Assembly (NCBI GenBank): GCA_965248925.1 | Contig: CBDFLE010000004.1 | Span: 220,748 to 284,747 of the forward strand | From: Candidatus Multivoradales bacterium | Lineage (GTDB): Bacteria; Acidobacteriota; Thermoanaerobaculia; Multivoradales; J023 | Length of the DNA stretch: 64,000 nucleotides | Reading direction: 5' to 3' | In this document: one piece after another, positions 3,144 through 53,065 of the stretch | Layout: every line of letters begins with the position of its first letter | How positions within the stretch are numbered: position 1 is the first letter of the stretch | The notes under the pieces: generated by a model | Seen by the model: only the letters and a program-made list of their open reading frames with translations | Databases searched by the model: none | What the model was told of the DNA's origin: nothing | Made by a program: the position numbers and the translations under genes

Positions 3144-3149
3144 CTTCCG

Positions 3150-15100: not shown

Positions 15101-18100
15101 CGACCCGACCGGTAGTTTCACCCAGCGCAGCTACGATGGGCTCAACCGGATGACCCGCGAGATCCGTCCGGAAGGGATCTCGGTCGACTACAGTTGGGAC
15201 GACGCCTCGCGCCTCAGCACCTACACCGACGCCCGCGGTCAGGCCACCCGCTGGACCTACGACGCCGTGGGCCGGCGCACCAAAGTGGTCTACCCTGATC
15301 AGCAGCAGGAACGCTGGGTCTATGACCCCACCGGCAACGTTACCGAGCGCCACGATCCTCGCGGCTTGGTCGTGCATCAGAGCTGGGATGACGCTGGGCG
15401 GTTGCAATCACGTACTGTCACCCCGCCGCTGGGCGGCACCCTCGAAGGGCCGGGGGTCGAGGCTTTCACCTTCGACGGCCTCGACCGCCTGACCCGAGCC
15501 CAGTCGGGAAGCGTAGTTACCGAGCGAGTCTACAACTCCCTCTCCCACCTGGCCTCAGAGACGAATGCCGGACGCACCACCAGCTGGCAGCGCAACGCCC
15601 TTGGCGAGCCCACTCGCACTAGCTACCCCTCGGGCCGCCAGGTCGAGCGCGCCTTCGACAATCTCGGCCGAGCCAGCACGGTTGGCGAACCCGGCGCGCC
15701 AGCCTCGATTGCCAGCTACGGCTATCGCGGCCCGGCGATTGCCTACAAGGCTCTCGGCAATGGTCTCCTGGGCAACATAAGCTTCGATGGCTTGCGCCGG
15801 ATGGTGGACAGCAACTTCAGCCTGGCGGGGGAGTCCGCCACCTTCCAGGAGAGTCTGGCCTGGAGTCCCCGCAGCCTCAAGACCGGCCAATCGCGGGGCG
15901 ATCTGGGCGGCGCCGGCCGGGTCTTCGCCTACGATGGCGCGAAGCGCCTGATCGAATCCGCTCGCGTGCCCCCGGCTTTGGCTCAGCGCCCTGGCAACAC
16001 GCCCCCCGACGTGGCCCTGCTGGCCAGCTTGCCCGAACGCACAAGCTACCAGCACGACAACGCCATGAACCTGATTCGCAGCACCACCACCCAGCGTGGC
16101 ATCGAGCAGATCACCGATTTACCGCCGGACAATCGCAATCGTCCCAGCGCTGTCGGCGGCGTTGCCCTCGAATGGGACGCTGCCGGCAACATGAAGCGCA
16201 AGGGCGATATGCAGATGTACTATGATTTCAAGAGCCGACTGACGCGGGTCGCCCGCGCCGGTGTCGAAGTCGCCAAGTATCACTACGACGCCTTCAACCG
16301 CCGGGTGAAGGTCGAGACGCCGACCCACACTGAGGACAGCGTCTGGGACGGCTGGCAATCGTTAGAAACCTATCGCGATGGTGCCTTGGCCTCGCGGCGG
16401 GTCTACGGCAACGGTATCGACGAGATCCTGCAACAAGAGGCCGACCTCGATGGAGATGGCACGGTGGAGCAGACTTACTATCCGATCACCGACAGCACCG
16501 GCAACGTGGCGATGCTGACCGGAGCTGACGGCAAGCCCATCGAGCGCTACTTCTACACCCCGTTTGGCGGGCGCAAAGTGCTGGTCGACTCCACGCCCCC
16601 CGAGGTCGAACAGGTGCGGGTGCAAGACGGTGCACTGTGGATCGAGCTTTCTGAAGAAGTCTCCACCGAAGAACTACAAGCCAGCCTGGCCGACGGTCGC
16701 ATCCAGCTGACCCAGACCAGCGACGGAATGCCCCTGCCGCTGACTCTTGATCTGCCCGTCCAGGAAGGCCGTCAAGCTCGGCGAAGACTCGTGCTGACGC
16801 CGGCCACGCCGCCCACCGACGGCGACAGCCTGCGGCTAGAAGTCGCCGCCAGCGCGCTGAGCGACACCTTCCGCAACCTGGCCAATGCCGGCGTCGACCT
16901 CACCTGGACCTGGTCCGCGGCCCAAGAGGTGCTGCAAGACACCGCCGCGCCGCGGGTCGCCGAAGTCCTGTTGCGATCACGCATCGTCGAGATCCAGTTC
17001 AGCGAAGAAGCCGACCTCGCCGCGGCTGCCAGCGCGATCCTCTTAGACGGTCAGCCCACTAGCTGGACCCTGGCTGAAGACCGATACACCCTGGTCGCAA
17101 GCAATACTCTGGCAGCAGGCACTCACACCCTCGACATTGGTACAGACGCTCTCGACCTCGCCGGCAGCGGCCTGGCCGCTGCCTTCAGTCAAGCCCTCAA
17201 CGTGCCGGCCAGCGGCGACCAGCTGGCCTTCCAGGCCGCCGACCCGCGACTCAGCAGCACCAGTGCCGCCGGCAACGCTCATGGCTTCCATGGCCGGCCG
17301 GTGGATGAGGAAACCGGGCTGCTGTACTTTAGGAACCGTTATGTCGATCCGGAGATGGGGCGGTTTGTTAGCAGCGACCCGATGGGGTATGTGGATGGGC
17401 CTAGTGGGTATCAGTTTGCGGGGAGTTCGCCCGAGGGTTTTAGAGATCCGCTGGGGTTAGCTCTCGTGTTCGGAGGAGACAAGTCATTAGAACTAGCCGT
17501 CGGTCGTCTACGTATTCGTAGTCCACAAATCGATGCCACATTGGCGAAATACGAAGGGCCTGGGGAACCGGATCTGATCTTCCAGAGACAAGGAACGCTG
17601 GCTGCGGATCGCGACGGCGGCAAAGTATTGCAGCATTTCAAGCCGTCCTTCAATCAAAGCGAGTTTTTGCCGATAAACTTCGAAGCAATGGAAGAGGAGA
17701 CCCGCACATGGTTTGCTGATCACGCGAAGGCCAAGTCGGCTAGCGGGCCTAGATGGAAAGGAAATCCAACACTGGAAATTCCGCCAATTTTCTATAACGA
17801 CAGTACTGGCAATGGGAACTGCGATAGTGGGCGGTATATTGACCCGATGTCTGTTCGATTGGAAAGGGCGTATATAGTAGTGAGCGTTAAGGAAAACAGG
17901 GCCGGTAGTGTTGAAGAAGCGTTCAGCTTGATACACGAACTAGGCCATGCTGATCAAGCGGCAAACAATACATGGGACTTTTTATCGAAGACATGCAATG
18001 ATCAAATTTATAGGGAGTTCAGTCTTGAAACCGAATCGTGGATTGGCGTGATCCCTCACGATGAACGCAGCGTGGAAAAGTACGCAGACCAATATCGCAG

Positions 18101-18194
18101 GTCTGTAGGCATTGAACTTGGTGTGGTACCAACAGATTTGAGGAGCAAGAAAGCGTGGCTCAAGAGATTGAAAGAGATTGGATTTCGGAGATGA
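3150..18194 (+). CDS. Giant Rhs/YD-repeat toxin A (~5014 aa): signal peptide, many Ig-like repeats, propeller-like region, DUF6531-like domain, YD shell, Rhs core, HExxH C-terminal tip
   Basis: MPKQLSLRSLLVLQASLGALLLSASAAQA signal peptide; GEN..V.A.D.AGN and FSEP.D Ig repeats; GPLGPGWDHGY; YD repeats; GLLYFRNRYVDPEMGRFVSSDPMG...DPLG; tip from 17457 has lower GC and IHELGH. Confidence 0.92.
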   Translation: MPKQLSLRSLLVLQASLGALLLSASAAQAAPAFISVTPADGTLSSAATVTLTIEVQAATSLQVDGQAVTTVDPSGTVWTAGPYSLSEGERVLVLIAEDASGVQAQQLHRVVRDSLAPVLSLSQPAAAAIVASSPLTVAGTAVDAHLAAVRVGGQVAALSGASFSHSLVLVEGEQTFTVEASDSLGQSGQQSVTVTLDSQPPTVALLEGAQPLAADALFNRSVVLSFSVTDATATTVEALLDGASFVSGTTVSGAGSHVFSVTATDAAGQPTSVSRSFEIDLTAPTFLSFTPSDGTLLAGSQVTLSGVVEGAAALSVEGQAASLVGQSWTAGALQLIEGEREISIVATDLAGNSASFTLHLERDATAPQLIGLVPSVDSVLATSPVAISGTASDAHLLEVRVGGELASLTGSQFSQPAVALVEGENLLPIVATDQVGHQATAELRLVLDTQAPTLSLLVAGVPLQGGAVFAGPVTPEISASDATEVVTSATLDGATYLPGTVIDGDGLHQLSVSASDAAGHQATVLVSFSLDLAAPVFADLAPVAGSVDSAAQVTLTGRAPGAVSVSVDGQAATLAGDGFSAGPFNLSEGERVFLLAATDSGGNVTQLTHRLTRDSTAPQLTLGQPAAGSLLGSTTVDVSGTASDPRLDQVTVNGVLAEISGGAFLARQVALIEGDNVLTVVAADTVGNEVQTTRSVTVDTTPPTVVITDPASGTITPEAGLTLSGSAADPHLDRVEVAGVGASLVGEQWSLAVDLQEGSNTFTVEAFDPLGHSTSASVTVTRDSSAPEIHIESPAEGLYSPAANLTVSGTVVAEPDLTVTVGGVAATIAGSSWSAAAVPLVEGENRLIARVTDALGNQGTHTRVVWRDNQAPEFLSSIPAAGALELPAGSSFRLRFSEPLAAPSGGAYSLSTLAGQALASSAEIDGDDLVITPQAALPSATELRLVLGAGLVDRAGNALAAAHTLAFTVVDGGSPAAPQLDAYASYLCAPAITLAGSAEPGAWIEVDGGASVGAGQVADDGRFAISVVLLPEGPNHLTVIAVDAAGNPSPATSADIVHDCTAPEVLGASREAAGFRIALSETVDPLTLSGSVRVYDSGVEIAGTVSAAVNAGAGELIWTATAALPSVALLVEVEGALADLAGNPLAFPYRQLFDIALGGSFFSGTAIDDASGRPLGGVRAVVTASDGVALAEPWPEQTSGEDGRLVIALPAGTHDVTFARPGYTPVFRVVTTVDGQGTDVFDPRLTPAAAAVSIDASGGLVEGSSEVGTAPRLTLPLAGLASAAAVRLTAVGGQGLAALLPYGWAPRGAVWVDLSAVNLDSSATLDLPVTSADGTVLEAVTLDLATLQWRSLGVVTVSGGEVTMTVDGEGAWAAVEADSGALAPPPAVAGQMLGSSAAPPSGGVTSASLSFDPEVVLPTQRSWVQVLYGLAAEVPSGVPLTLSIEERLELLDGSVRRISPYSADLVLYRDSLGDPTSRFRLRPSAAARSLPVRLGAEQVSVRSYGDETVRGNVLGPDGGVVSSAEGDQVVLPTGALEEPTAVTLSRRTVADLPLAPPAGGTVDGVLELDLAGRRLLLPAELSWSLTPAPAAGTPGLLLGVVEVEGEPRYRAIAELEATATGWRTQAIDAADLAWPGVLEGGLYVFLRLDAAPRFVRGMVLDPGGAPVVGAVVESTTVPWLQISAAEGGYVLPILLDAATLSARRAVTGNAVAVALPAGVAGERVDLDLPLQIVAPWVEQITPSAGTSGVLLGVNPVVRFSEPVDRASLDGAIELRQGGVAVAVALDHQGALVTLLPQATLVPGSEYEVWVGAAVRDLQGYGLSGSVSVLFSTEVVATPAGVDRGRIFLVEPDAQGLARVEGLAGAAPAGTLVFVENLTSFSTTESVQSAGDGSFLLTIGASLEDQLLLHVLIDGGNEVVILLTPFLGADLRTGLAGTGAGEFTTADGITVRYAAGTFAGPSRVQVTPIAMGTLAAAEDFSELLTFRLEIAGAQPLKPLEVTMAAPAGTAPAGTAAGSLWLLRRQLEIADLPWMVHAELALDGGELSTIHTVGEAQSANSGEVGGTKSGTFDVPAPLRVLSPAEAAARLPRSGFLSALPPADPAALVEVEPPLAGLGAAKATVAPVLADYLVGVSRPGIYQAARAEVELGWIAFPFRGAQDLVVRTAELPEVVLALDAVNRSFLPLGAGALPVELSPTPLNADPAAPGTPGTPGSKAPPAGEPKADSVEIQVLDFAGVELYRVVVDAPTQQVVLLSPSQLPNAGPPMPLGGGPLRFHAFSAAPGTSEIAAGISAELEGNSLTVRGEAGSAGAGVAVRLIDLESSNVLSATASPGGSFSVVASPSQLGDQLVLAISAKLTPGQPLRLDFSEALQEEAPGIRVEHDGMALPITKEPLGSWAQLLIHGGWQAGKTYNLRLDSTMADAAGLPWDTDLTLPFEVAESSAGTSFALDAAHDIARLGSLLFVAAGADGLAVLDASDPRQLKNWLAAETYVDLVAEPGLPVRGVATDSHGRVVAVGGGVARRGVLLILDPQELPQGAATVPAAAILGRTLLTEPQLAGSGAPPLLIGRPLAVEIFNRDESTSWTVGEVVPPGLTLAPPSPPSGTAAVSLTVSGMATAERPVTLRNLTTGERDSARVGSAGGGGAGSFSLSLSVRRGDRLELLRNELSLAYVAGYDAGVVTVDLNAVEAADEEVDDPWDAFDLLRYNTHYFVPTEVLCSTFENDQRFDVIDARVLPAASEGEPWSVLALVENYGLLSLGASVAAPLDKLAYRDALCGEVDGNRKLGGLDVLPGYRFDRNGDGVLDDEEPERDYALLTNTVGGGGLGWLLIVDVTKRDELLLVGRIELPGPATRVTADPVGRRALVSGLGGGVYIVDLDRWPELGGGGGTPQIWSSDRVVERLSFGEDVRAPTLVAPELGLAFAGGVARGVTPISTGLPRLSLVTSGQQGLRRVARLAPFGAPTAPESAEEGAEEIPGVIRVQAQLPGGLADAEGKIRVDLAGIGPAGLPVRGLGEGLMDEPMAELKDDKALVLQRQSDNPLSEGYNVFLSDPVVLLADVRASAHFERSEAEKKVCRRCDLVDEGVYSAADLPPNELHVELLSGHQVRASYSASFATSLSGLYNADLLAGYAVIADSVPWDLSPSPHQEPVLNAATSAMAAPGTLLHSGEMTRQAIDLSLQGRGLDLALVRTYRSQTISNGPLGPGWDHGYRLRLRLLPNGDIDFFDGTGRRETFTLEDDGKLMPPVGRFVQLKKYAEGYTLIGSGYQRWRFDRWGRLVSMIDSVRTSEGTGNEITFHYDSHSRLARIHDDLDRNTFLHYDDEGRLEKIVDFSDRDFLYHYDAQGRLTSFETPDVDLGSGSSQRLSTTYAYHPLGTGLAGQLTQRDDLKSETDAKSQTWLTLRYQDSDGNGRPDALKEQDWGAGTVHLAFDFDGQQTTLTDRRGKVWTYHLNAAGQATSLIDPKSANGSWQYDGEGLLTRATRPLGGATQIEYPADTSGDRRGRGDAQRMVKIADGRGPNGSPSELVTTWEYHSPTHQPSRKTEPGGAVTVWERTDNGLPEQIVRAAGAAEQSITGLSYNARGQLLEATNPNGHVTRHSYFTSGSEEGYLKQTEVDPGGLSLVTIYERNDRGQLEAITDPRGVRHETELNRLDWPLAQVAAASTSGFLAPLGYRTTWRYDANGDITEVASPFGDGSTTTIEVRTFGVLGELLSAEREVAPGGRRIVETSTYDPNLNLLTHIDGAGQRVEREYDDRGQLSLVRRGLGTGALATPIVEHQSYDLDGHLSSQRDGRGMTWEAERDGHGRVLRSRTPLGHYREQSYGAAGDLAATLAFDAGGQLLAESAFTHDLLHRRTETTAWRWTPDPQQPDPARTAEKTHHRWDVASNLLEVEDPLGRLTRTFYDAAERPERVELPEGNVRRTTYDSGGLPITEHADEVDPAGGSHTITYQSTFDALGRRLSRQDGIFANRTLWTVDARGQVTLEVDPTGSFTQRSYDGLNRMTREIRPEGISVDYSWDDASRLSTYTDARGQATRWTYDAVGRRTKVVYPDQQQERWVYDPTGNVTERHDPRGLVVHQSWDDAGRLQSRTVTPPLGGTLEGPGVEAFTFDGLDRLTRAQSGSVVTERVYNSLSHLASETNAGRTTSWQRNALGEPTRTSYPSGRQVERAFDNLGRASTVGEPGAPASIASYGYRGPAIAYKALGNGLLGNISFDGLRRMVDSNFSLAGESATFQESLAWSPRSLKTGQSRGDLGGAGRVFAYDGAKRLIESARVPPALAQRPGNTPPDVALLASLPERTSYQHDNAMNLIRSTTTQRGIEQITDLPPDNRNRPSAVGGVALEWDAAGNMKRKGDMQMYYDFKSRLTRVARAGVEVAKYHYDAFNRRVKVETPTHTEDSVWDGWQSLETYRDGALASRRVYGNGIDEILQQEADLDGDGTVEQTYYPITDSTGNVAMLTGADGKPIERYFYTPFGGRKVLVDSTPPEVEQVRVQDGALWIELSEEVSTEELQASLADGRIQLTQTSDGMPLPLTLDLPVQEGRQARRRLVLTPATPPTDGDSLRLEVAASALSDTFRNLANAGVDLTWTWSAAQEVLQDTAAPRVAEVLLRSRIVEIQFSEEADLAAAASAILLDGQPTSWTLAEDRYTLVASNTLAAGTHTLDIGTDALDLAGSGLAAAFSQALNVPASGDQLAFQAADPRLSSTSAAGNAHGFHGRPVDEETGLLYFRNRYVDPEMGRFVSSDPMGYVDGPSGYQFAGSSPEGFRDPLGLALVFGGDKSLELAVGRLRIRSPQIDATLAKYEGPGEPDLIFQRQGTLAADRDGGKVLQHFKPSFNQSEFLPINFEAMEEETRTWFADHAKAKSASGPRWKGNPTLEIPPIFYNDSTGNGNCDSGRYIDPMSVRLERAYIVVSVKENRAGSVEEAFSLIHELGHADQAANNTWDFLSKTCNDQIYREFSLETESWIGVIPHDERSVEKYADQYRRSVGIELGVVPTDLRSKKAWLKRLKEIGFRR

Positions 18195-18778
18195 AGATGG
18201 TTTCTTATACTTGGAAGCACTGTTGGCTTTTTGTCCTCTTGGTTCTTCTTTTGGCAATGATGCCTGATATCCATGCGTCGGAGCTTCTTCCTACGCAGGT
18301 AGCTGGCACGGAAGAAGTCTATCTGTCTCTACGAGTTGATCTTGCTTTTGAGGAGAAGTGGCCAGGAATTAGTAGTTCTCTCGAACAGCGAGCGCGTGAG
18401 CTGCTGGCAGAAGGAGGCATCGCCATCGCTCCACCCTTCCGGGTTGTCGAACGGGCAGGACTTCCCGGCCGAACTCTCGTTATCGAGATTAGTTTCATTG
18501 TACTTGATCGAAGGCAGGGTTGTGATATGGCAGCGATCCTCTTTGAGCTTGATCTCAAGGAGTGGGTAGAGCTGAGTCGACCTCCAGAAGTGAAGGCGAA
18601 AGGGGGCGGGAAGGCTTGGGTTTCGGTATGGGGAGACCGCGATAGCGCTTGGCTAAAGATGGATGATATCAGAGCTGAAGTTGAAGAAGATTTGGAGTTT
18701 TATATCAACTATTTCGTAAAGCAAGTCGAACTCGCAAATGGGGTCGTGGCCCGTCCCCCACGTCCACAATCAGACTAG
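18191..18778 (+). CDS. Putative immunity protein 1 with signal peptide
   Basis: ATGA overlap with the rhs stop; lower GC; hydrophobic N-terminus ending IHA. Confidence 0.75.
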   Translation: MKMVSYTWKHCWLFVLLVLLLAMMPDIHASELLPTQVAGTEEVYLSLRVDLAFEEKWPGISSSLEQRARELLAEGGIAIAPPFRVVERAGLPGRTLVIEISFIVLDRRQGCDMAAILFELDLKEWVELSRPPEVKAKGGGKAWVSVWGDRDSAWLKMDDIRAEVEEDLEFYINYFVKQVELANGVVARPPRPQSD

Positions 18779-18830
18779 CCCTACTTAGTCAGATTGTCCG
18801 CCCTCAGAAAGCGTCCCGTCCGCCGCGTCC
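18747..18830 (+). repeat. End-motif cluster 1 (degenerate copy at 18747, fragment at 18795, full copy at 18813)
   Basis: TGGCCCGTCCCCCACGTCCACAATCA and GTCCCGTCCGCCGCGTCCGCGATCAAAATCG. Confidence 0.75.
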
Positions 18831-19038
18831 GCGATCAAAATCGTAGCCAAACGGCCACTTTATTGGTCGCCTGCCTTCGTTGATGGACCCGCTCCTTGTC
18901 GCTCCTCTTCAGCTCACGCCGAGAATTTCCCAGACCGACGGCGATCTTCGCTAGCTGCCGAGAATCCGAGGCGCCTGAGCGAGCCTCACCGTGGACAGCG
19001 CGTCGCAGCAGCCCATCAACTCGCCAGCCTGAGCCGCT

Positions 19039-19952
19039 CTACTTGGGCGCATAGAAGCCAGAGAGCACTCCTTGCCAGGCGGTCATGAATCGTAGGTGCC
19101 CCCGTGAGGGCTTGCGGCCGGTCCAGATCTCGGCTGGCGTGTAGCCATCGAGGCTTTGGTGCGGGCGCAGTTCGTTGTACCAAAACCGGAAGACATCCAG
19201 CTGCCGCTGGGCCTTGCGGCCCGCTGGCAGCGGCTCGCGCCGCCGCCGCAGGCGCTCTTTGAAGGTACCGAAGAACCGTTCGACGCGGCCGTTCTGCCAG
19301 GGCGAGGCCACCTGAGTTCGCTGGTGGCGAATACCCAGTATGGCCAGCGAAAGCCGGAAGATCCAAGATGTAAAGACTGGCTCGTTGTCAGTGCGCAAGC
19401 ACTTTGGCTTGCCGCATAGCTCGATCGCGTTGAGCAGCTGGCGAACCAGCTCAATGGAGGCTTTGGTCTTCACCGTCTGAAGGCACAAGCAGAGCCGAGT
19501 GCCGTGATCCAGCAGGCCGAGAATCATCTCTTTCTTGCTGGCGGTGTTGTCAGCGTAGGTGAGATCGGCGGCCCAGATCAGCCGCTTGCCGATGATTCCA
19601 GGTTTTCTCCTGCGATCTTCCGGCGCCAAGCGAGAATCTCCAGCTGGTGCTCGTTGAAGATCTTCGCAACGTAGCTCTTGCCCACCGTCATTCGGCGATG
19701 GCGGTAGTTGCGATTGAAGGCTGCCGCGATGGCGCGGCAGCCATCGTCGGGCTGCAACGCCTTGAGCCGAATCACCGCTTGGCGCACCCACTTGGGCTTG
19801 GGCCGGCAGAAGCCGCGATAGGTCGTTGGGCCGCGTGGACACCCAGCTCGGCGGCGGTGCTTCGCCCTGGGTTGCTGGGCGAGCGAAATGAGCGCAAGAA
19901 TCAGAACCAACACGAAGGCACAGAGCAGGATGCCGGCAAGGTCGGGAGTCAT
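19039..19952 (-). pseudogene. rve/DDE integrase-core protein with a 1-nt frameshift near 19613
   Basis: Split into two ORFs; TGCGATC here versus TGCGGATC in the intact copy at 49074-49988; could be a sequencing error. Confidence 0.8.
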
Positions 19953-20002
19953 TCCTTGAGAATACAGATCTAACGCAGCCTAGCCAGAGGTGCCGCGCTT
20001 CC

Positions 20003-20470
20003 TCACGTATCACCTCCCGAATGCCAGAAGCCCGGCTTGTGTAGCTCCAGCACGAAGTCCACCTTGGCGGCCCTCCTCTCGTAGTCACGCCGCTCCTTCG
20101 CCGCCGCGATCCTGGCGGCGATCTCGCTGGCCAGGTGCTCTCCCTTGCCGGGTCGCGTGGGCAGGGCTTCCCTGGCCACATCGCGGAGGACTTGCTCCAC
20201 CAGCGCCCGGTCCTTCTTCTTCGGGTCGCTAGCGTGGTTGAGAAACCACAGGATCAGCGCCGCGGGCTCGAGGAAGCGGTGGTTGACCGCGGCCAGGAAG
20301 GCCGCGGTCAGCTCTTCGATCGGCGCGCCGGCAGAAAGCTTTATCTCGGCCAGGCTGTCGATGCTGGAGTGATTGAGTCGCTGGTTGGCGCCGGTGATCT
20401 GAGCGGCGATCTGGCGTGCTGCCTGGTGGATCTGTTCGGCGGTCATCGGCTTTCTGGACAGGGTGGCCAT
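20003..20470 (-). CDS. Hypothetical protein (155 aa) of the module
   Basis: GAGGAG RBS; conserved in all module copies directly upstream of the integrase. Confidence 0.75.
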   Translation of the reverse strand: MATLSRKPMTAEQIHQAARQIAAQITGANQRLNHSSIDSLAEIKLSAGAPIEELTAAFLAAVNHRFLEPAALILWFLNHASDPKKKDRALVEQVLRDVAREALPTRPGKGEHLASEIAARIAAAKERRDYERRAAKVDFVLELHKPGFWHSGGDT

Positions 20471-20492
20471 TCTGGTGCTCCTCCTCGGTAAT

Positions 20493-20630
20493 CTATTGTT
20501 GGCGGATATTGACGCCGAAGCCGATGGCCATGGTTTCGATGGCTTGGGCCAGGGCGATGTGTTGCTCGGTGAGTTCGGTCTCCGGAGCGCCTGGCAGCTT
20601 GAGGGTCAGCAAAGTGCCTCGTAGATGAAT
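20493..20630 (-). pseudogene. 3' remnant of PCD-like protein 2
   Basis: About 180 bp (equivalent to ~576-756), including the start codon, is missing relative to module A. Confidence 0.65.
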
Positions 20631-20639
20631 TCCTTAAGG

Positions 20640-21005
20640 TCATGGTTCAAGAAAAAGCACCCTCCGGGCAGCAGGGACTGATTCTGCCCGGAGGGGTGGA
20701 GTTGCCGTGGTTGGGGAGGGACCACCACGGCCATCACAGGGACTCAGGGAGCGAGCGAGGTCGAAATCTTCCGGCCGCAGACGGGCCGGCGCCGCCGGCC
20801 CGATCCGTACCGAGACCCAGCGGCCGACCATCGCGGCTCTGGGTTCTAGGTTGGTGAGTTCACCGCGATAGAACACCCACTCGACGAAGATCAGGGAATC
20901 GCGCCAAGAGTCAAAGAGATATTTGCGGGTGATCTTTTGTTGCCCCTTGATTTGTCGCCAAACGGGTAGGGCACTCAGGGCCTGTTGGATCTCTTCGTCG
21001 GTCAT
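20640..21005 (-). CDS. PCD/DCoH-like protein 1 (module B)
   Basis: Nearly identical to 763-1125; AGGAG RBS before MTDEEIQQ. Confidence 0.75.
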   Translation of the reverse strand: MTDEEIQQALSALPVWRQIKGQQKITRKYLFDSWRDSLIFVEWVFYRGELTNLEPRAAMVGRWVSVRIGPAAPARLRPEDFDLARSLSPCDGRGGPSPTTATPPLRAESVPAARRVLFLEP

Positions 21006-21286
21006 CGCTCTCTCCTTGGGTCTAGGAGATCGTAGGTCCAATGTGTCAGATCTGCGCAAACAGTCCGGGCTTCGCTATAGCCTGAAGCGGGGCACCTGAG
21101 AATCCCTCCTTTCTGGTCTGCTTGGGTGTTAAAGAACTCGGTTTCGGACAATAGGCGCGCACTGTGCTGACATGGGTGCTGATTCTCGTGCAGCTTTGAT
21201 GTTTTTCGCGCCAAAATCTCGGCGAAAGCTCTGCGTGGGCTATACTTTGCTCCTGAGCCAACTATCTGGAGGGGTGTATGTCAGAA

Positions 21287-32125: not shown

Positions 32126-32380
32126 GTGTATTCTCAGATTGCAGTAGTTTTTTTGGTGGGTCTAGTCCTGGGCGTTTTGCAATCGCTGTTGGTTGGTATC
32201 CGCATCGGCACCTGGGACGGTGGAACTGGTTGTCTCTGGGGACTCTTGGTTGGGATTGCGTCAGGACTGTGTGCGATCTGGATTGGTTGGTGGGGCAATG
32301 CTGTCGCAGTGTTGATGTCTTTGGTGTGTTTCATCGGTGCCGAAGTGTGGATTAGGAAGAACGGCGCGCCCCGCATGTAG
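32126..32380 (+). CDS. Putative immunity protein 2, small membrane protein
   Basis: Abuts the toxin stop; about three hydrophobic segments in 84 aa. Confidence 0.65.
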   Translation: MYSQIAVVFLVGLVLGVLQSLLVGIRIGTWDGGTGCLWGLLVGIASGLCAIWIGWWGNAVAVLMSLVCFIGAEVWIRKNGAPRM

Positions 32381-32394: not shown

Positions 32395-32416
32395 TGTCCC
32401 GTCCGCCGCGTCGTCC
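32395..32416 (+). repeat. End-motif copy at the left border of the primase/recombinase element
   Basis: TGTCCCGTCCGCCGCGTCGTCC, 14 nt after the immunity stop. Confidence 0.75.
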
Positions 32417-32509
32417 CTGAATAGGTGCCAGCCGATTCGCAATCCGCCTAGAATCAGCAGCTTGCCTTGACCAAAGCCCGGCTAGCGCCGGGCATTGCTG
32501 CATCCGCGG

Positions 32510-32863
32510 TCAGATACCAGCCTGTTGGAGGACGGTCTCGATCATCTGCGAGACGAATTTCTGCTGGCTCCTTGGCAGTTTGGCTAGCTGCTCAAGCTGA
32601 TGCTGTAGCTTGGAAGTAGGGCCCCGCTTGGCCTGCCGCGTTTCAACTCCGATCAGCTCAGCGATGGAGATCCCCAAAGCCTTGGAGAGGGTGGGGAGAT
32701 CGGTCACCGGAACCCGCCTTCGGCCCTTCTCTAGAGAGACGACCCGTTGCTGTGAGCAGCCGAGCATCTCGGCGAGCTGCACCTGGGTCATGCCCCGGCT
32801 CCTGCGGAGAGTGGCCATCCGTTTGCCAAGCTGCTGAAAGAAGTTCTTCTCGTCTGAGGTCAT
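32510..32863 (-). CDS. XRE-family HTH repressor
   Basis: LRRSRGMTQVQLAEMLGCSQQRVVSLEKGRRR; C-terminal KRGPTSKLQHQLEQL; divergent from the replication operon. Confidence 0.88.
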   Translation of the reverse strand: MTSDEKNFFQQLGKRMATLRRSRGMTQVQLAEMLGCSQQRVVSLEKGRRRVPVTDLPTLSKALGISIAELIGVETRQAKRGPTSKLQHQLEQLAKLPRSQQKFVSQMIETVLQQAGI

Positions 32864-32938
32864 CGCTCCATCCACCTTGTTCTAGGCGATAAGTGTATCC
32901 CTGGATTTCCATATTGGGGTTTTATATACTCCGAAACG

Positions 32939-32947
32939 TGTTATAAT
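32939..32947 (+). promoter_or_regulatory. Extended -10 promoter TGtTATAAT of the symE-primase-recombinase operon
   Basis: Consensus TGnTATAAT in an AT-rich intergenic patch 60 nt upstream of ATG 33007. Confidence 0.6.
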
Positions 32948-33006
32948 TCGTTTGAGTTTGAGACCCCAGAACGGCCTTGACAGGTTTTCAGCCGAAGGAG
33001 AGCCCC

Positions 33007-33433: not shown

Positions 33434-33435
33434 GG

Positions 33436-42763: not shown

Positions 42764-42782
42764 GCTGTTTTGGCAGCGCAAG

Positions 42783-43339: not shown

Positions 43340-43352
43340 TGTCCCGTCCGCC
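43340..43352 (+). repeat. Partial end-motif copy
   Basis: TGTCCCGTCCGCC between immunity 3 and the IS3 left end. Confidence 0.7.
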
Positions 43353-43357
43353 CCCTC

Positions 43358-44666
43358 TGTGCCAATGTAAGTGAGACACTCCCGTACCGATAAATTAGTG
43401 AGGGCGTGGAGAGCAAACACCATGGCGAGTCCAAGCCACGAGCTGCGAGATATGAGTGCTGACCGACCAGATCCCGAGGTAACTGAGAAGGCGAAGCGGC
43501 GGCGGTACAGCGCGTCGTACAAGCTGAGCATCGTCCAGGCCGCCGACGCGTGTAGCAAGCCCGGCGAGATTGGCGCCCTGCTTCGCCGGGAGGGTCTGTA
43601 TTCATCTCTACTATCGAATTGGCGCCAACAACGCGATGCCAGTGCTCTGGCCGGTTTGTCGAAGAAGCGCGGTCGTAAGCGTCGGTCGGTCTCTGCTGAG
43701 GCCCGCCGCGTCGCGGAGCTTGAGCGTGAGATTGCCCGGCTCAAGCATCAGCTGTACAAAGCCGAGACGATCATCGATGTCCAAAAAAAACTTTCCCGAC
43801 TGCTAGGGATCGAGCCGAGCGAGAGCCAGTCATGAGCGCTGTGGCGCCGCTGGCATTGACGGTGGGGGTGCAAGCAGCCTGCGTCGCCTTGGCGGTCCCC
43901 AGAGCCACTTTCTATCGCCGCCGTCGGCAGCAGAGCGCAGGGCCGAGACTATTGACGCGGCGTCGACCGCCGCTGGCATTGACGCCCGCTGAACGCCAGG
44001 AGGTCCTCGATGTGTTGCACTCGGAGCGCTTCGTCGACCGCTCGCCGCGTCAAGTCTGGGCGGCGCTGCTGGACGAGGACCAGCGCCATATCTGCTCGGT
44101 GCGCACCATGTACCGGGTCCTGGAGTCTGAGGGCGAGCTGCGCGAGCGACGCCGTCAGCGGCGTCATCCCAACTACACCAAGCCCGAACTGCTGGCCACA
44201 GGGCCGAACGAGGTGTGGTCGTGGGACATCACCAAGCTCAAGGGCCCGGTGAAGTGGACCTACTACTACCTTTACGTAATTCTGGACGTCTTCAGCCGCT
44301 ACATCGTCGGCTGGATGCTCGCCTCCCGCGAGTCCGGAGGACTCGCGAAGCGGTTGATCGCCGACAGTGTTGAGAAGCAAGGTGTTGAGCGAGATCGACT
44401 TACCTTGCACTCGGACCGCGGTTCGAGCATGACATCCAAGCCAGTGGCTCTACTGCTGGCCGATCTCGGGATGACACGGTCGCTGAACCGGCCCTACACG
44501 AGCAACGACAATCCGTTCTCTGAGGCCCAGTTCAAGACGCTCAAGTACCATCCGAGCTTTCCCGACCGCTTCGGATCACTGGAAGATGCACGAGCGTTCT
44601 GCCGCTCGTTCATCGGCTGGTACAACACGCAGCACTACCACACAGGACTCGGTTTGTTGACGCCAG
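43358..44666 (+). mobile_element. IS3-family element, truncated at its right end
   Basis: Probable left IR TGTGCCAATGTAAGTGAGACAC; orfA/orfB in -1 phase with an A8 run at 43783-43790; no matching right IR seen. Confidence 0.8.
43422..43835 (+). CDS. IS3 OrfA (HTH)
   Basis: PDPEV.EKAKRRRYSASYKL...GALLRREGLYSS..W...IIDVQKK; exact start uncertain. Confidence 0.82.
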   Translation: MASPSHELRDMSADRPDPEVTEKAKRRRYSASYKLSIVQAADACSKPGEIGALLRREGLYSSLLSNWRQQRDASALAGLSKKRGRKRRSVSAEARRVAELEREIARLKHQLYKAETIIDVQKKLSRLLGIEPSESQS

Positions 44667-44701
44667 TGTCCCGTCCGCCGCGTCCACGATCAAAATCGTA
44701 G
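43832..44701 (+). pseudogene. IS3 OrfB DDE transposase, C-terminally truncated
   Basis: PNEVWSWDIT, LHSDRGS, NDNPFSEAQFKTLKY; ends GLLTP followed by motif-encoded VSRPPRPRSKS. Confidence 0.8.
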
Positions 44702-44893
44702 CCAAACGGCCACTTTATTGGTCGCCTGCCCTCGTTGATGGACCCGCTCCTTGTCGCTCCTCCTCAGCTCACGCCGAGAATCTGCCAAACCGACGGCGAT
44801 CTTCGCTTGCTGCCGAGAATCCGAGGCGCCTGAGCGAGCCTCACCGTGGACAGCGCGTCGCAGCAGCCCATCAACTCGCCAGCCTGAACCGCT
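44667..44893 (+). repeat. End motif plus conserved ~225-bp non-coding segment downstream of the integrase
   Basis: Near-identical to 18813-19038 and 48849-49073. Confidence 0.85.
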
Positions 44894-45808
44894 CTACTTG
44901 GGCGCATAGAAGCCAGAGAGCACTCCTTGCCAGGCGGTCATGAATCGTAGGTGCCCTCGTGAGGGCTGGCGGCCGGTCCAGATCTCTGCCGGTGTGCAGC
45001 CGTCGAGGTTCTGATGCGGGCGCAGTTCGTTATACCAAAACCGGAAGACATCCAACTGCCGCTGGGTCTTGTGGCCTTGCGCCAGCGGCTCGCGCCGCCG
45101 CCGCAGGCGCTCTTTGAAGGTGCCGAAGAACCGCTCGATGCGCCCGTTCTGCCACGGCGAGGCTACCTGAGTTCGCTGGTGGCGAATGCCGAGAAGAAAG
45201 AGTGAGAGCCGGAAGATCCAAGAGGTGAAGACGGGCTCGTTGTCGGTGCGCAAGCAATTTGGCTTGCCGCAAAGCTCGATCGCGTCGAGCAGCTGGCGTA
45301 CCAGCTCGACTGAGGCTTTGGTCTTGACAACCTGAAGGCACAAGCAGAGCCGAGCGCCGTGATCCAGCAGGCCGAGAATCATCTCTTTCTTGCTGGCGGT
45401 GTTGTCAGCGTAGGTGAGATCGGCGGCCCAGATCAGCCGCTTGCCGCCGAACCCAGGTTTCCTTCTGCGGACCTTCTGACGCCAAGCAAGAATCTCCAGC
45501 CGGTGCTCGTTGAAGATCATTGCAACGTAGCTCTTGCCCACCGTCGTTCGGCGATGGCGGTAGTTGCGATTGAAGGCTGCCGCGATCGCCCTACAGCCAT
45601 CGTCGGGCTGCAACGCTTTGAGCCGAATCACCGCTTGGCGCACCCACTTGGGCTTGGGCCGGCAGAAGCCGCGATAGGTCGTTGGGCCGCGTGGACACCC
45701 AGCTCGGCGGCGGTGCTTTGCCCTGGGTTGCGGGACGAGCGAAGTGAGTGCAAGAATCAGAACCAACACGAAGGCACAGAGCAGGATGCCGGCAAGGTCG
45801 GGAGTCAT
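44894..45808 (-). CDS. rve/DDE integrase-core protein (304 aa), intact
   Basis: WAADLT, RTDNEPVF, NGRIERFFGTFK DDE triad; WYNELRPHQ; hydrophobic N-terminus; AGGA RBS. Confidence 0.88.
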   Translation of the reverse strand: MTPDLAGILLCAFVLVLILALTSLVPQPRAKHRRRAGCPRGPTTYRGFCRPKPKWVRQAVIRLKALQPDDGCRAIAAAFNRNYRHRRTTVGKSYVAMIFNEHRLEILAWRQKVRRRKPGFGGKRLIWAADLTYADNTASKKEMILGLLDHGARLCLCLQVVKTKASVELVRQLLDAIELCGKPNCLRTDNEPVFTSWIFRLSLFLLGIRHQRTQVASPWQNGRIERFFGTFKERLRRRREPLAQGHKTQRQLDVFRFWYNELRPHQNLDGCTPAEIWTGRQPSRGHLRFMTAWQGVLSGFYAPK

Positions 45809-45858
45809 TCCTTGACAATACCGATCTCACGCAGCCTAGCCCGAGGTGCCGCGCTGCC

Positions 45859-45972
45859 TCACGTATCACCTCCCGAATGCTAGAAGCCCGGCTTGTGCAA
45901 CTCCAGCACGAACTCCACCTCGGCGGCCCTCGTCTCGTAGTCACGCCGCTCCTTCGCCGCCGCGATCCTGGC
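45859..45972 (-). pseudogene. 3' remnant of the 155-aa hypothetical gene
   Basis: Homology to the 50039 copy stops at CGCGATCCTGGC. Confidence 0.7.
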
Positions 45973-45997
45973 CACGTCGAGGCGGCATTACATCCAC

Positions 45998-48314: not shown

Positions 48315-48760
48315 TGACTCGAGTAGCCTTTTCAGTCACCCTGGTTGTGGCCTTGGCATGCGCGTCCGTTTCAGCGCCATGGAAGCGGACCATTCGAGGA
48401 TCAGTTGTAGCGTACGATCAGACGGCTACATTGACGAAGATCACATCTGCGCCGCAAGTGGATATTCTCATCGTCAAAGTGGAGGTAACCTCTCGGCCCG
48501 ATGCCGCAGGATCATTCAAGAAGGTCGTTCTCCACGGCTTCCATGGGGAACCACTTCCGCGCGAGTTGTTCGAGAAAGGCCACCGGTGGCGGTTCGCCGT
48601 CTCAGCAAGTCGAAGCATCGAAACTTGCACCGCACCACTTCCTTATCTGAAATGGCTAGACGAGCAAGCCAAGGTAAACGCGCCTGATCTGACTCGTGTC
48701 GAGTGTTTGGAGGCTAGGCGCTCTGGCGTGTCCCGTCCAAGCCGTCCACAGCCCGATTGA
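48314..48760 (+). CDS. Putative immunity protein 4, exported (signal peptide or lipoprotein)
   Basis: TGATG coupling to the toxin stop; MTRVAFSVTLVVALAC N-terminus. Confidence 0.7.
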   Translation: MTRVAFSVTLVVALACASVSAPWKRTIRGSVVAYDQTATLTKITSAPQVDILIVKVEVTSRPDAAGSFKKVVLHGFHGEPLPRELFEKGHRWRFAVSASRSIETCTAPLPYLKWLDEQAKVNAPDLTRVECLEARRSGVSRPSRPQPD

Positions 48761-48867
48761 TGTCCCGTCCGCCGCGTCCACGATCAAAAGTTGTCCCGTC
48801 CGCCGCGTCCGCGATCAAAATCGTAGCCAAACGGCCACTTTATTGGTCTGTCCCGTCCGCGGCGTCC
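48729..48867 (+). repeat. Four nested end-motif copies (48729, 48761, 48792, 48849)
   Basis: Each starts TGTCCCGTCC and carries progressively more of the same downstream sequence. Confidence 0.9.
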
Positions 48868-49073
48868 ACGATCAAAATCGTAGCCAAACGGCCACTTTAT
48901 TGGTCGCCTGCCTTCGTTGATGGACCCGCTCCTTGTCTCCTCTTCAGCTCACGCCGAGAATTTCCCAGACCGACGGCGATCTTCGCTAGTTGCCGAGAAT
49001 CCGAGGCGCCTGAGCGAGCCTTACCGTGGACAGCGCGTCGCAGCAGCCCATCAACTCGCCAGCCTGAGCCGCT

Positions 49074-49988
49074 CTACTTGGGCGCATAGAAGCCAGAGAG
49101 CACTCCTTGCCAGGCGGTCATGAATCGTAGGTGCCCCCGTGAGGGCTTGCGGCCGGTCCAGATCTCGGCTGGCGTGTAGCCATCGAGGCTTTGGTGCGGG
49201 CGCAGTTCGTTGTACCAAAACCGGAAGACATCCAGCTGCCGCTGGGCCTTGCGGCCCGCTGGCAGCGGCTCGCGCCGCCGCCGCAGGCGCTCTTTGAAGG
49301 TACCGAAGAACCGTTCGACGCGGCCGTTCTGCCAGGGCGAGGCCACCTGAGTTCGCTGGTGGCGAATACCCAGTATGGCCAGCGAAAGCCGGAAGATCCA
49401 AGATGTAAAGACTGGCTCGTTGTCAGTGCGCAAGCACTTTGGCTTGCCGCATAGCTCGATCGCGTTGAGCAGCTGGCGAACCAGCTCAATGGAGGCTTTG
49501 GTCTTCACCGTCTGAAGGCTCAAGCAGAGCCGAGTGCCGTGGTCGAGCAGGCCGAAGATGGTTTCTTTCTGGCCGGCGGTGTTATCAGCGTAGGTGAGAT
49601 CGGCGGCCCAGATCAGCCGCTTGCCGCCGATCCCAGGTTTTCTCCTGCGGATCTTCCGGCGCCAAGCGAGAATCTCCAGCTGGTGCTCGTTGAAGATCTT
49701 TGCAACGTAGCTCTTGCCCACCGTCATTCGGCGATGGCGGTAGTTGCGATTGAAGGCTGCCGCGATCGCCCTACAGCCATCGTCGGGCTGCAACGCCTTG
49801 AGCCGGATCACCGCTTGGCGCACCCACTTGGGCTTGCGCCGGCAGAAGCCGCGATAAGTCGTTGGGTCGGGTGGACACTTGGCTCGGCGGCGGTGCTTCG
49901 CCCTGGGTTGCAGGGCGAGCGAAGTGAGCGCAAGAATCAGAAGTAACATGAAGGCACAGAGTAGGGCGCCGCCAAGATCGGGAGTCAT
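49074..49988 (-). CDS. rve/DDE integrase-core protein (304 aa), intact
   Basis: Same DDE motifs as 44894-45808. Confidence 0.88.
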   Translation of the reverse strand: MTPDLGGALLCAFMLLLILALTSLALQPRAKHRRRAKCPPDPTTYRGFCRRKPKWVRQAVIRLKALQPDDGCRAIAAAFNRNYRHRRMTVGKSYVAKIFNEHQLEILAWRRKIRRRKPGIGGKRLIWAADLTYADNTAGQKETIFGLLDHGTRLCLSLQTVKTKASIELVRQLLNAIELCGKPKCLRTDNEPVFTSWIFRLSLAILGIRHQRTQVASPWQNGRVERFFGTFKERLRRRREPLPAGRKAQRQLDVFRFWYNELRPHQSLDGYTPAEIWTGRKPSRGHLRFMTAWQGVLSGFYAPK

Positions 49989-50038
49989 GCCCTGAGAATA
50001 CCGATCTCACGCAGCCTAGCCCGAGGTGCCGCGCTGCC

Positions 50039-53059: not shown

Positions 53060-53065
53060 CTTCCG

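Follow-up and report, generated by a model that had tools for sequence, protein, structure and literature searches.

New toxin tips and orphan arrays in Rhs and CDI loci are usually explained by homologous recombination and, to our knowledge, transposase genes within orphan arrays have been mentioned only in passing. Compact units closed by a conserved site and lying in one orientation are found in integron arrays, which are built on attC sites and the IntI tyrosine recombinase, and compact units also accumulate at one locus in the recombinase-associated immunity-gene islands of the Bacteroidales. Among insertion sequences, the IS26 translocatable unit consists of one IS and its adjacent DNA and is inserted beside a resident IS copy. 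One-ended transposition is known from the Tn3 family and from the ISEcp1-type mobilisation of adjacent genes, where two inverted repeats are normal and the one-ended events are a side reaction.

Orphan cdiA-CT/cdiI and rhs-CT/immunity pairs, displaced downstream of the main gene and in the same orientation, are described in the available text of Ruhe et al. (2016; PMC4927057), which cites Poole et al. (2011) and which, in that text, names no enzyme family, end sequence or junction structure for the arrays. According to the available text of Ocasio and Cotter (2019; PMC6350997), an IS2-like 'megacircle' of Burkholderia thailandensis carries bcpAIOB, a contact-dependent toxin system, and the circle inserts beside a pre-existing IS copy. 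Among the papers covered by a literature search, none was found on the rve family and terminus described below or on their placement relative to immunity genes.

The window (the whole stretch of 64 kb analysed here) contains a short motif which is probably the terminus of a compact, one-ended rve (DDE) module specialised for polymorphic-toxin loci, separating toxin-tip/immunity units. The module probably helps to stack and reshuffle Rhs/CdiA toxin cassettes. Compared with the orphan arrays as given in the available text of PMC4927057, the present analysis adds a single rve family with a defined terminus and a defined place relative to the immunity gene across phyla. As far as the available accounts go, the arrangement shares with IS26 units and the megacircle an array in which IS copies in direct orientation alternate with cargo segments, and the link to contact-dependent toxins, but the unit here is a single toxin-tip/immunity cassette, and the IS of those systems possess two inverted repeats as well as an activity shown by experiment, whereas the module has one recognisable end and is known from sequence. 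It differs from integrons and the Bacteroidales islands in having a DDE rve enzyme with its own gene in each unit, and from integrons in that the site is a transposon-like terminus and not a folded attC hairpin. One precise end, variable partners and the mobilisation or deletion of neighbouring DNA are shared with one-ended transposition; unlike Tn3 or ISEcp1, a second repeat was present in none of 75 loci. The module would be an unusual DDE element because this second inverted repeat is absent.

The motif and the module in the window

A pattern search of the window for TGTCCCGTCC-N5-GTCC, allowing up to two mismatches, gave nine matches, all on the + strand (18747, 18812, 32395, 43340, 44667, 48729, 48761, 48792 and 48849). 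Five of these are exact, three have one mismatch and one (43340) has two. The mean in 100 shuffles was 0.96 and the maximum five, with no shuffle reaching nine, and the nine copies in a single orientation of the original prediction were therefore borne out, except that the copy placed at 18813 starts at 18812, its first base being C and not T. When both strands of the 8 Mb genome were scanned, a check which had been proposed at the outset, the exact motif was found 24 times and on the + strand every time, with 23 copies in one Rhs array (on C4 past 140 kb or in the first 70 kb of C5) and the remaining one (C5:2329574) beside another Rhs gene. Allowing two mismatches genome-wide gave a chance background on both strands (22 matches outside the array). 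The motif was not found in inverted orientation in the window, nor in the genome at up to one mismatch on both strands.

The motif represents the first 19 nt of a module of about 1.2 kb (range about 1.15–1.25 kb), and all module copies detected by BLAST of 18700–21300 begin at it. From the tip inward the module comprises the terminus, about 230 nt, and an rve (DDE) gene of 304 aa, which lies on the minus strand and reads towards the tip. The terminal 10-mer TGTCCCGTCC is followed by the inner GTCC half-site, about 150 nt, an inverted half-site and the rve stop codon. A conserved 310-codon frame occupies element positions 231–1160, with a single frame of 304–310 codons in the nine intact copies. 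On the side beyond the rve start the module stops 40–80 nt upstream of the start codon, with unrelated sequence there. The features of the window are as follows:

18155–18778: putative immunity ORF, stopping 31 nt inside the end copy at 18747
18747..18811, + strand: outer, diverged and truncated end copy of 65 nt, motif TGGCCCGTCC-N5-GTCC
18812..20004, + strand: full rve module, copy 1, terminus 18812–18830
18990–19002: inverted inner half-site of copy 1
From stop codon at 19039, minus strand: rve gene of copy 1, frameshifted
32395..32413, + strand: 19-nt end remnant, 14 nt past the putative immunity ORF 32126–32380
After 32413: unrelated DNA with a terminator-like hairpin, an HTH gene (32510–32875, minus strand) and then a primase/XerC-like element
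43340..43352, + strand: 13-nt end remnant, 2 nt past the putative immunity ORF 42735–43337, cut by an IS3-family element
43353..44666, + strand: IS3-family element, outside the module, with orfA 43371–43835 and orfB 43832–44701
44667..45972, + strand: rve module, copy 2, terminus 44667–44685, joined inside the IS3 orfB
44845–44857: inverted half-site of copy 2
44894–45808, minus strand: intact rve gene of copy 2
48311–48760: putative immunity ORF, ending inside the first nested terminus, 31 nt into the 48729 copy
48729..48848, + strand: three nested truncated termini of 32, 31 and 57 nt, starting at 48729, 48761 and 48792
48849..50038, + strand: full rve module, copy 3, terminus 48849–48867
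49025–49037: inverted half-site of copy 3
49074–49988, minus strand: intact 304-aa rve gene of copy 3

Due to the frameshift in copy 1, with rve residues 114–304 encoded at 19042–19614 and residues 1–113 in another frame at 19614–19952, the ORF list contains a fused ORF of 380 aa (19039–20181). The right limit of copy 1 was set just before the stop of orf155 (20003–20470, minus strand), and 53 nt lie between the rve gene of copy 3 and the stop of a further orf155 (50039–50506, minus strand). Copy 2 breaks off at element position 1305, where it continues into an Rhs fragment, and the same fusion occurs at C5:62424.

The putative immunity ORFs behind the four Rhs C-termini belong to no Pfam family and are named for their position. 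Their coordinates agree with the claim that a copy of the motif lies within about 15 nt of, or inside, each of the four immunity gene ends, and the motif is supported as a boundary mark for all toxin-tip/immunity units in the array. The copies thought to close cassettes are not all alike, with 32395 being only a 19-nt remnant and 43340 only a 13-nt remnant, while 44667 follows no immunity gene.

The rve protein and its residence in toxin loci

All 12 aligned members contain the Pfam domain rve_3, and 11 of them also rve, with residues D130, D189 and E225 invariant in all 12 aligned homologues. The protein has the rve core and the D, D, E triad of a DDE transposase, and among solved structures its closest relatives are cores of retroviral integrases (E = 7e-11). 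The IS481 model NF033577 was the best NCBIfam model for all 12 members (best E-value of 3.8e-34), followed by IS3. The module further resembles IS481 and IS3 elements (e.g., ISPa57) in its TGT start, its length of about 1.2 kb and the distance of about 230 nt from stop codon to terminus, and the inverted repeat of ISPa57 (IS3 family), as printed in a table of PMC7378034, begins with the module's terminal 10-mer.

The suggested membership of IS481 fails at the curated score, with the intact copy at 49074–49988 scoring 113.9 bits where 224 are required and the frameshifted copy 1 giving 102.9 bits, and the IS3 model NF033516 is likewise not reached (98.5 bits against 160). The protein also differs from IS481 and IS3 in a hydrophobic N-terminal stretch, and no inverted repeat is present 5′ of the gene. 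The overlapping orfA and orfB with programmed frameshift of IS3 elements were not found in the nine intact copies, which have a single frame. A Tn7-like origin, which had also been suggested, does not fit a protein of 304 aa with one rve core in a module with a single end, and no TnsA or TnsC families were found among the neighbours of the module, these being orf155, DCoH-like and HTH/TPR genes. The upstream ORF, orf155, is also present at other places in the genome where rve is missing. The nine intact rve paralogues show dN/dS values of 0.14–0.37 with dS up to 0.28 and, judged from sequence, the modules are kept functional.

Homologues of rve with 45–56% identity in genomes of the same family have the same terminus, which is also nested there. 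At least 352 rve relatives were found, and the terminus count was taken over 80 loci. In 63 of these, from several phyla and with rve homologues of 38–51% identity, the terminus lies 150–900 nt 3′ of rve, and six of the 17 loci lacking it have less than 450 nt of sequence 3′ of rve. The assignment of the motif to the DDE protein is thus strengthened, as modules start at the motif and the terminus travels with rve in other phyla.

Every strong rve match in the source genome lies in the Rhs arrays or next to the Rhs gene at C5:2.33 Mb, apart from one truncated copy at a contig end, and in a Nitrincola genome four of four module copies are in one cdiBAI-orphan array. An ORF of at least 500 aa beyond the tip was found on the converging strand in 33 of 57 loci and on the other strand in 10. 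As the module is convergent with the toxin gene, one module comes to lie behind each toxin-tip/immunity unit. Pfam scans identified 15 of 26 large neighbouring ORFs as Rhs, filamentous-haemagglutinin/DUF637 or ShlB; these scans replaced an Rhs core-end peptide motif which, as a toxin detector, was too narrow (4 of 56 loci, converging strand). About 11 of the 26 have no recognisable toxin scaffold, with two being housekeeping genes (Lon and SelB). The association of the module with polymorphic toxins is strong, though not exclusive, and wider than the original prediction had claimed, since the terminus and an rve homologue adjoin Rhs/CdiA in other phyla. It should also be noted that only one of 72,556 plasmid records has an rve match at E ≤ 1e-30.

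Junctions at the terminus and the search for a second end

The terminus is a precise junction, and joints with different DNA have formed at it many times. The outermost end copies adjoin unrelated DNA, with few exceptions the 3′ end of a putative immunity gene. For 11 of the 13 outermost junctions in the genome the left 400 nt had no match elsewhere, the other two representing one duplicated cassette, and the unrelated left flanks and sharp boundary that had been described were thus borne out. Truncated termini of 8–175 nt are stacked outside full modules, and in 49 pairs of nested truncated termini from 16 sources the spacings cluster at 8, 13–17 and 31–33 nt. Ectopic joints were found as well. 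Terminus 44667 joins the IS3-family element, of which 25 other near-full-length copies in both orientations are present, and the 3′ part of the element is removed where the terminus joins; the element at 43353 dates two separate events at TGT ends. Terminus C5:37106 is joined 495 nt inside another module, within its rve copy. These nested termini and ectopic joints support the claim of a real recombination or transposon end with a sharp outer boundary.

The original prediction also had the end joining to DNA just past an immunity gene. Against this stands a cassette that is identical at C4:196669–197068 and C5:60721–61120, where the terminus follows immunity codon 94 in C4 and codon 42 in C5, so that a single cassette has two joint positions, with one falling inside the immunity gene. 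The joints inside the IS3 element and inside rve are further points against targeting of gene ends. On this one informative junction pair, loosely chosen joining sites filtered by selection fit better than gene-end targeting. The two copies of the cassette adjoin different rve variants.

Modules clearly undergo homologous recombination and gene conversion with one another, and one fusion junction is common to modules whose rve identity to the copy at 49074–49988 is 88% and 100%. Much of the array could therefore arise without transposase activity. In Logan contigs of four runs from one sample (rare circles are not visible in contigs), five joints were found over 45700–50600. Their matchable letters equal the flanks of the paralogous copies at C4:163134, C4:197222 and C5:2329574, so these joints represent cross-mapping and not excision products. 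The contigs showed no free end, excised circle or newly formed joint.

Terminal inverted repeats at both ends, as in IS481, were not found in the window or in two sets of loci. In 75 loci the 3 kb upstream of rve contained no inverted terminus, and local alignment for a second end in 56 loci gave a score of 14.4, equal to that of shuffles (14.4). The absence of an inverted partner, claimed from the sequence of the window, holds for the terminal 10-mer but not for the inner half, which is inverted about 178 nt inside each full end. An inverted inner half-site was detected at 160–215 nt from the tip in 49 of 65 ends, compared with 12 of 65 for the direct orientation and a mean of 9.6 (maximum 16) in 100 shuffles at the same distance. 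All three flanking bases agree between half-site and inverted copy in 12 of 61 ends, where 4.9 are expected from permuted pairing; this covariation is only suggestive, as the sequences are related. In the copy of genome G034 the inverted half-site is present and the terminus is absent, the copy being truncated or diverged. A MITE, with terminus and inverted half-site bounding a mini-element of 200 bp, was considered and rejected, as solo copies (from Nitrincola and the source genome) break off at differing positions short of the inverted site and are not bounded by it, and the inverted site is without the terminal 10-mer.

The right boundary is fairly sharp, to within a few nt in four of four Nitrincola copies and in two of three copies in genome G009. 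This is the expectation for an ordinary two-ended IS, and a second end sharing only 2–3 terminal bases may exist. The left and right flanks of modules were never contiguous pieces of one target, and for the 4.4 kb around the single module of the complete genome L053 a search of 25 relatives matched neither flank and gave no empty site. No target duplication was identified.

Proposed role of the module and alternative explanations

Under the favoured explanation of a one-ended module, the terminus would be the site recognised and cut by the rve enzyme, and the module's own DDE enzyme would make the joints by single-ended strand transfer, with the terminus pairing with the internal inverted half-site in place of a second end. 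The unit added would consist of the module, a toxin fragment, a C-terminal toxin domain and the immunity gene. Arrays could grow by joining of this unit beside a resident module, or by crossing of the unit into the main toxin gene via shared toxin-core sequence, and all modules would therefore lie in one orientation. Older toxin tips would be displaced and become orphans. Cassette assembly by the rve enzyme is plausible, and the architecture of the arrays is compatible with an IS26-type translocatable unit or an IS2-like megacircle. One enzyme family and one DNA end at the cassette boundary of Rhs/CdiA loci in distant phyla would constitute a testable molecular candidate, whose parts are one 304-aa protein, one 20-nt terminus and an internal half-site.

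A bolder version, which we hold only tentatively, is that the rve module is no selfish IS but the machinery of a cassette system for polymorphic toxins, built on a DDE enzyme and comparable to the integron, with a transposase as its driving enzyme. Each toxin-tip/immunity cassette would then travel with its own single-ended integrase gene, new cassettes would be stacked behind the toxin gene by one-ended strand transfer at or inside the resident terminus, and old cassettes would be excised or trimmed by the same enzyme. If true, Rhs/CdiA loci of several phyla would share a dedicated mechanism for tip acquisition and switching.

The module might instead be an ordinary IS481/IS3-like IS whose second end has diverged beyond recognition, which accumulated in arrays by tandem duplication and homologous recombination and is merely tolerated at toxin cassettes. 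This is the most serious of the competing explanations, although we consider it rather unlikely. The match of the catalytic core to the IS481 and IS3 models in all 12 members, the first 10 nt shared with the printed start of the ISPa57 inverted repeat, the discrete right boundary 40–80 nt upstream of the start codon and the evident gene conversion between copies would all be expected of such an IS. It is less easily reconciled with scores below both curated cut-offs, with the lack of an inverted partner in the 75 and 56 loci and with flanks that are never contiguous parts of one target. Copies are also not dispersed as those of an ordinary IS, lying instead in one orientation in toxin loci of the source genome, Nitrincola and many other taxa. 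The paralogues are old (dS up to 0.28) and intact under purifying selection, unlike those of a recent spread, and the family is nearly absent from plasmids. Even as an ordinary IS accumulating in toxin loci, the module would be a useful marker of cassette boundaries and of unannotated toxin/immunity pairs.

The three large units of the window are direct repeats which each start at the motif and share everything to the right of it, as would be seen if the motif were the mere edge of a homology block in tandemly duplicated Rhs units, with no breakage or joining there. The nested truncated termini, the joints inside the IS3 element and rve, and the two joint positions of one cassette contradict this, as does an exact boundary sequence that is conserved across phyla while the rest of the module is at 38–51% protein identity, making such an origin very improbable. 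An even slighter chance is given to the XerC-like tyrosine recombinase (36507–37592), one of the enzymes originally proposed, assembling cassettes at the motif in the manner of an integron integrase. Compact cassettes each closed by a site in the same orientation do recall integron arrays, and remnant 32395 lies 19 nt before the DNA leading into the primase/XerC-like element. That element is, in fact, an independent multi-copy one. Its integrase segment occurs at 13 further places in the genome, tandem sets included, none of them at a motif match, and in other phyla the motif accompanies rve and not a tyrosine recombinase. No tyrosine recombinase of the IntI type was found that would act on the repeated site.

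For the one-ended module, the tight fit to immunity genes would result from selection and not from recognition of gene ends, because the loss of a needed immunity gene, through a joint or a deletion next to the end, is proposed to be lethal. Seven of seven immunity ORFs reading into the end share one frame, including the truncated one; selection seems to account for six of these and does not obviously do so for the seventh.

Distribution of the motif and the module that it ends

A search of the window for TGTCCCGTCC-N5-GTCC with up to two mismatches returned nine matches, all on the plus strand; dinucleotide shuffles of the window gave a mean of 0.96 matches and never reached nine. The original prediction had listed nine copies in one orientation, and a single position required correction (from 18813 to 18812). 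In the whole genome (7.98 Mb, 6 contigs, with the window as the final 64 kb of contig C4) 24 exact copies were found, again all on the plus strand, with background on both strands appearing only at two mismatches. Scatter irrespective of toxin loci was not seen, as 23 of these copies lie in the array (contig C4 past the 140 kb mark, or contig C5 within its first 70 kb) and the remaining one (C5:2329574) lies beside another Rhs gene. The observation is confirmed and is wider than originally stated. The two bases outside the terminus were also found to be biased: at 82 outermost junctions, from a set of 131 junctions over all loci, position −2 was G in 41, and position −1 was G in 39 and A in only 5. 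This could represent a weak target preference or a true terminus 1-2 nt further out.

In every case the full motif copies form the first 19 nt of a rightward-running repeat, with the stop codon of a minus-strand rve gene ~230 nt inside the end. The motif is very probably the terminus of this rve module, and its role as a transposase end is supported by ISPa57 (IS3 family), whose listed inverted repeat begins with the same 10 letters (PMC7378034). The start codon of rve lies only 53 nt from where a 155-aa ORF (orf155) stops. Next come DCoH-like genes, then an HTH/TPR gene of ~447 aa in divergent orientation and finally the following giant Rhs gene. Each Rhs gene is preceded by a trio made up of orf155, a gene resembling DCoH/pterin-4a-dehydratase and the HTH/TPR regulator (window 50039-52669 and 20003-23900). 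An IS4-family transposase gene at 21300-22457 (DUF4372 and DDE_Tnp_1; 287.6 bits, cut-off 115), missing from the other units, splits one unit between the DCoH-like and HTH/TPR genes. The trio was also present at five further sites of the genome, each without rve or an Rhs N-terminus:

C5:1076682-1079064
C6:2414487-2416186
C6:3277579-3280078
C6:4661696-4664304
C6:4910582-4913130

Since the trio occurs elsewhere without rve, the module proper is limited to ~1.2 kb, and the trio may act as a module that regulates other large secreted proteins.

The rve frame is open over 310 codons in nine copies and encodes a protein of 304 aa with rve and rve_3 integrase core domains (Pfam); the copy at 19039-20181 carries a frameshift in rve. 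Among the curated models IS481 scored best, at 113.9 bits against a cut-off of 224, and IS3 came next, at 98.5 bits against a cut-off of 160; by NCBI thresholds the protein is a member of neither. Residues D130, D189 and E225 were invariant among 12 aligned homologues, and retroviral integrase cores are the nearest solved relatives. In every aligned homologue with an N-terminus the first residues form a hydrophobic stretch that resembles a membrane helix, and a basic patch comes after it (residues 1-30 of the copy at 49074-49988), an unusual feature for a transposase. The nine intact paralogues show dS of up to 0.28 and dN/dS of 0.14-0.37; they are old and distinct and have been kept functional, which sets them apart from an IS that expanded recently.

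Junctions with the putative immunity genes

Four motif copies were located at the 3' ends of small ORFs behind four Rhs C-termini, in agreement with the predicted position at immunity-gene ends:

18155-18778, small ORF reading 31 nt into the motif
48311-48760, small ORF reading 31 nt into the motif
32126-32380, small ORF ending 14 nt before the motif
42735-43337, small ORF ending 2 nt before the motif

The large genes ahead of them encode Rhs-repeat proteins (Pfam). No Pfam family was matched in the four small ORFs, which are named putative immunity genes from their position. Tblastn and ORF maps gave the same order throughout C4:147-285 kb and C5:1-65 kb, namely giant Rhs ORF, small ORF, motif and rve on the opposite strand. 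Within the giant Rhs ORFs of the window (2850-18194, 5,114 aa; 52925-63034, at least 3,369 aa), families of 86-nt repeats recur with spacings of 750 and 1,008 nt, and G+C falls from ~0.68 to 0.52-0.56 across each C-terminal tip and small ORF.

Thirteen distinct outermost junctions were counted in the genome. Eleven lie between 14 nt after and 34 nt before the end of a small ORF, one falls within a small ORF that is itself a truncated copy, and one is 11 nt from the start codon of the HTH gene that follows an immunity gene. All seven ORFs that read across a junction (window 18747 and 48729; C4:162997 and C4:197222; C5:36610, C5:49301 and C5:61121) enter the TGT end in one frame and stop after 10-11 codons, with tails such as SRPPRPRSKS, the other two frames being unused. 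Selection against long tails would explain the common frame in six cases, but not obviously in the truncated immunity gene at C5:61121.

Relatives and residence at toxin loci

The terminus was recovered at homologous rve loci in relatives and in other phyla, a check proposed with the original prediction. Among 40 relatives and the source genome, 27 of 41 genomes had an rve match (E ≤ 0.001), and strong matches (45-56% identity) carried the same terminus 3' of the gene, again nested, with five or six termini in one contig of the same-family relative G017 and several in a second, G009. One G009 contig (C126) holds three ~4.7 kb units in the order terminus, rve, Rhs fragment and small ORF; its module measures ~1,150 bp, with a right boundary ~37 nt upstream of the start codon and unrelated in sequence to the terminus. 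The protein family comprised 1,080 proteins (E ≤ 0.001), named at source only as "integrase core domain-containing protein" or "transposase InsO family". A literature search turned up no account of the family, of its terminus or of how the terminus joins immunity genes.

A scan with one genome per species gave 352 relatives, of which the best 80 loci (38-51% identity) belong to Acidobacteriota, Nitrospirota, Gamma- and Betaproteobacteria, Campylobacteraceae, Fibrobacteria and others. A terminus (up to two mismatches in the 10-mer and GTYC within 12 nt, 150-900 nt past the gene) was called in 63 of these 80, and six of the 17 misses have less than 450 nt of sequence there. In 56 of the 63, the distance from the end of the protein match to the innermost terminus is 213-304 nt. 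Sequence beyond the tip was long enough in 57 loci, and 33 of these had an ORF of 500 aa or more on the converging strand, against 10 on the other strand. Such an ORF lay within 2.5 kb in 27 loci, and Pfam analysis of 26 of them gave seven Rhs-repeat, seven filamentous-haemagglutinin/DUF637 (CdiA-type) and one ShlB-type transporter, with six in no family and five others (Laminin_G_3, LysM twice, Lon and SelB). The association with toxins is not exclusive. Judged from these loci, the family and its tip are conserved in distant phyla, with enrichment where Rhs and CdiA cassettes end 3'.

Four rve copies are present in a complete Nitrincola genome, all of them in one locus with five nested 8-nt termini, in the order cdiB, cdiA (3,788 aa), cdiI, terminus, rve, orphan cdiA fragment, small ORF, terminus and onward. 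The orphans start at differing points of the cdiA core, and the right boundary of the module agrees within a few nt in the four copies. Past the last orphan (12431-15707 of this locus, L100), TGT ends that are truncated and lack rve precede toxin-antitoxin genes of the nucleotidyltransferase type (DUF6036; AbiEii with DUF6088). Only one of 72,556 plasmid records had a family match at E ≤ 1e-30, namely Undibacterium plasmid pUYM01 (locus L101, 9097-18687). Here rve converges with a gene for a hypothetical 363-aa protein and with a gene of ~38.8 kb for a "tandem-95 repeat protein"; a diverged terminus of the GTTC variant (TGCCCTGTTCACCGTTC) lies 15 nt after the stop codon and CTGAACAG lies inverted ~175 nt inside the end.

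Joining at the tip and the candidate enzyme

Truncated termini are stacked outside full modules in the window (65 nt at 18747; 32, 31 and 57 nt at 48729-48848) and elsewhere in the genome (13-76 nt, and one of 495 nt ending inside rve). A 13-nt remnant at 43340 is cut by an IS3-family element (orfA/orfB, 43353-44666) with 25 other near-full-length copies genome-wide on both strands, and this element is itself cut at 44667 by another TGT terminus, with loss of its 3' part. A cassette duplicated at 100% identity (C4:196669-197068 and C5:60721-61120) has the terminus at two positions, following codon 94 of the immunity gene in C4 and codon 42 in C5, beside differing rve variants, and the broken immunity gene is present alongside an intact one. 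This would be expected if joints were loosely chosen and selection removed those destroying a needed immunity gene. The tip is a precise, repeatedly used joint and part of the rve module. No circle or new joint was seen in the assembled contigs of the available sequencing runs, where the joints represented cross-mapping of paralogues, and a search of 25 relatives of one host genome for an empty site, as used in a target-duplication test, found none.

The 3 kb upstream of rve yielded no inverted terminus in any of 75 loci, two-mismatch matches there being scattered and lacking a following GTCC, and local alignment of the first 30 nt against 600 nt upstream scored 14.4 in 56 loci, equal to shuffled sequence. 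Under these searches a second terminus appears to be absent. The inner half-site does recur inverted without the terminal 10-mer (e.g., GCGGACAG or CGTGGACAG); 49 of 65 ends have it at 160-215 nt from the tip, against 12 of 65 for the direct-orientation control and a mean of 9.6 (maximum 16) in 100 shuffles. In the window it is found at:

18990-19002, inverted half-site
44845-44857, inverted half-site
49025-49037, inverted half-site

The half-site was considered as the far end of a mini-element and rejected because truncated solo ends are not bounded by it, so it is regarded as internal. Counting against a one-ended reading, the right boundary of the module is fairly sharp, as that of a two-ended IS would be.

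The enzyme had originally been proposed to be either the DDE protein or the XerC-like recombinase of a neighbouring multi-copy element, which has the following features:

32414-39359, the whole element
32510-32875, minus strand, HTH gene
33418-36507, DnaG-type primase gene
36507-37592, XerC-like tyrosine recombinase gene
37589-37885, DUF4258 toxin-like gene
a 341-aa ORF

The right end of this element overlaps the start of an Rhs fragment (39360) by ~12-15 nt. Its integrase segment has 13 other copies (81-88% identity), including seven in tandem at C5:921-982 kb and three at C6:3498-3518 kb, and none of the 13 lies at a motif; the XerC-like recombinase was rejected on this ground, and the DDE protein with a transposon end at cassette boundaries was retained. 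The original interpretation is upheld in part. A reading of the motif as a passive duplication boundary is contradicted by the nested and ectopic joints.

Under the preferred reading, the DDE enzyme of the module would make joints at the tip, with the internal inverted half-site used in place of a second end. A unit made up of a module, a toxin fragment, a toxin tip and an immunity gene would be added beside a resident module, or alternatively crossed into the main gene where the toxin cores are homologous. Both routes would account for the displaced orphans and for the single orientation, and selection would produce the close fit to immunity genes. This full mechanism is proposed tentatively; combined with the identification of the terminus, the reading is considered fairly probable overall. 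The nearest experimentally described behaviour is that of IS26 translocatable units and of an IS2-like circle of B. thailandensis. The B. thailandensis circle carries a CDI locus and re-inserts beside a resident IS copy (PMC6350997). One fusion junction (element position 1305 to Rhs fragment) is common to two modules, although the rve gene of one has 88% identity to the reference copy at 49074-49988 and that of the other 100%, indicating that gene conversion or recombination between modules also occurs.
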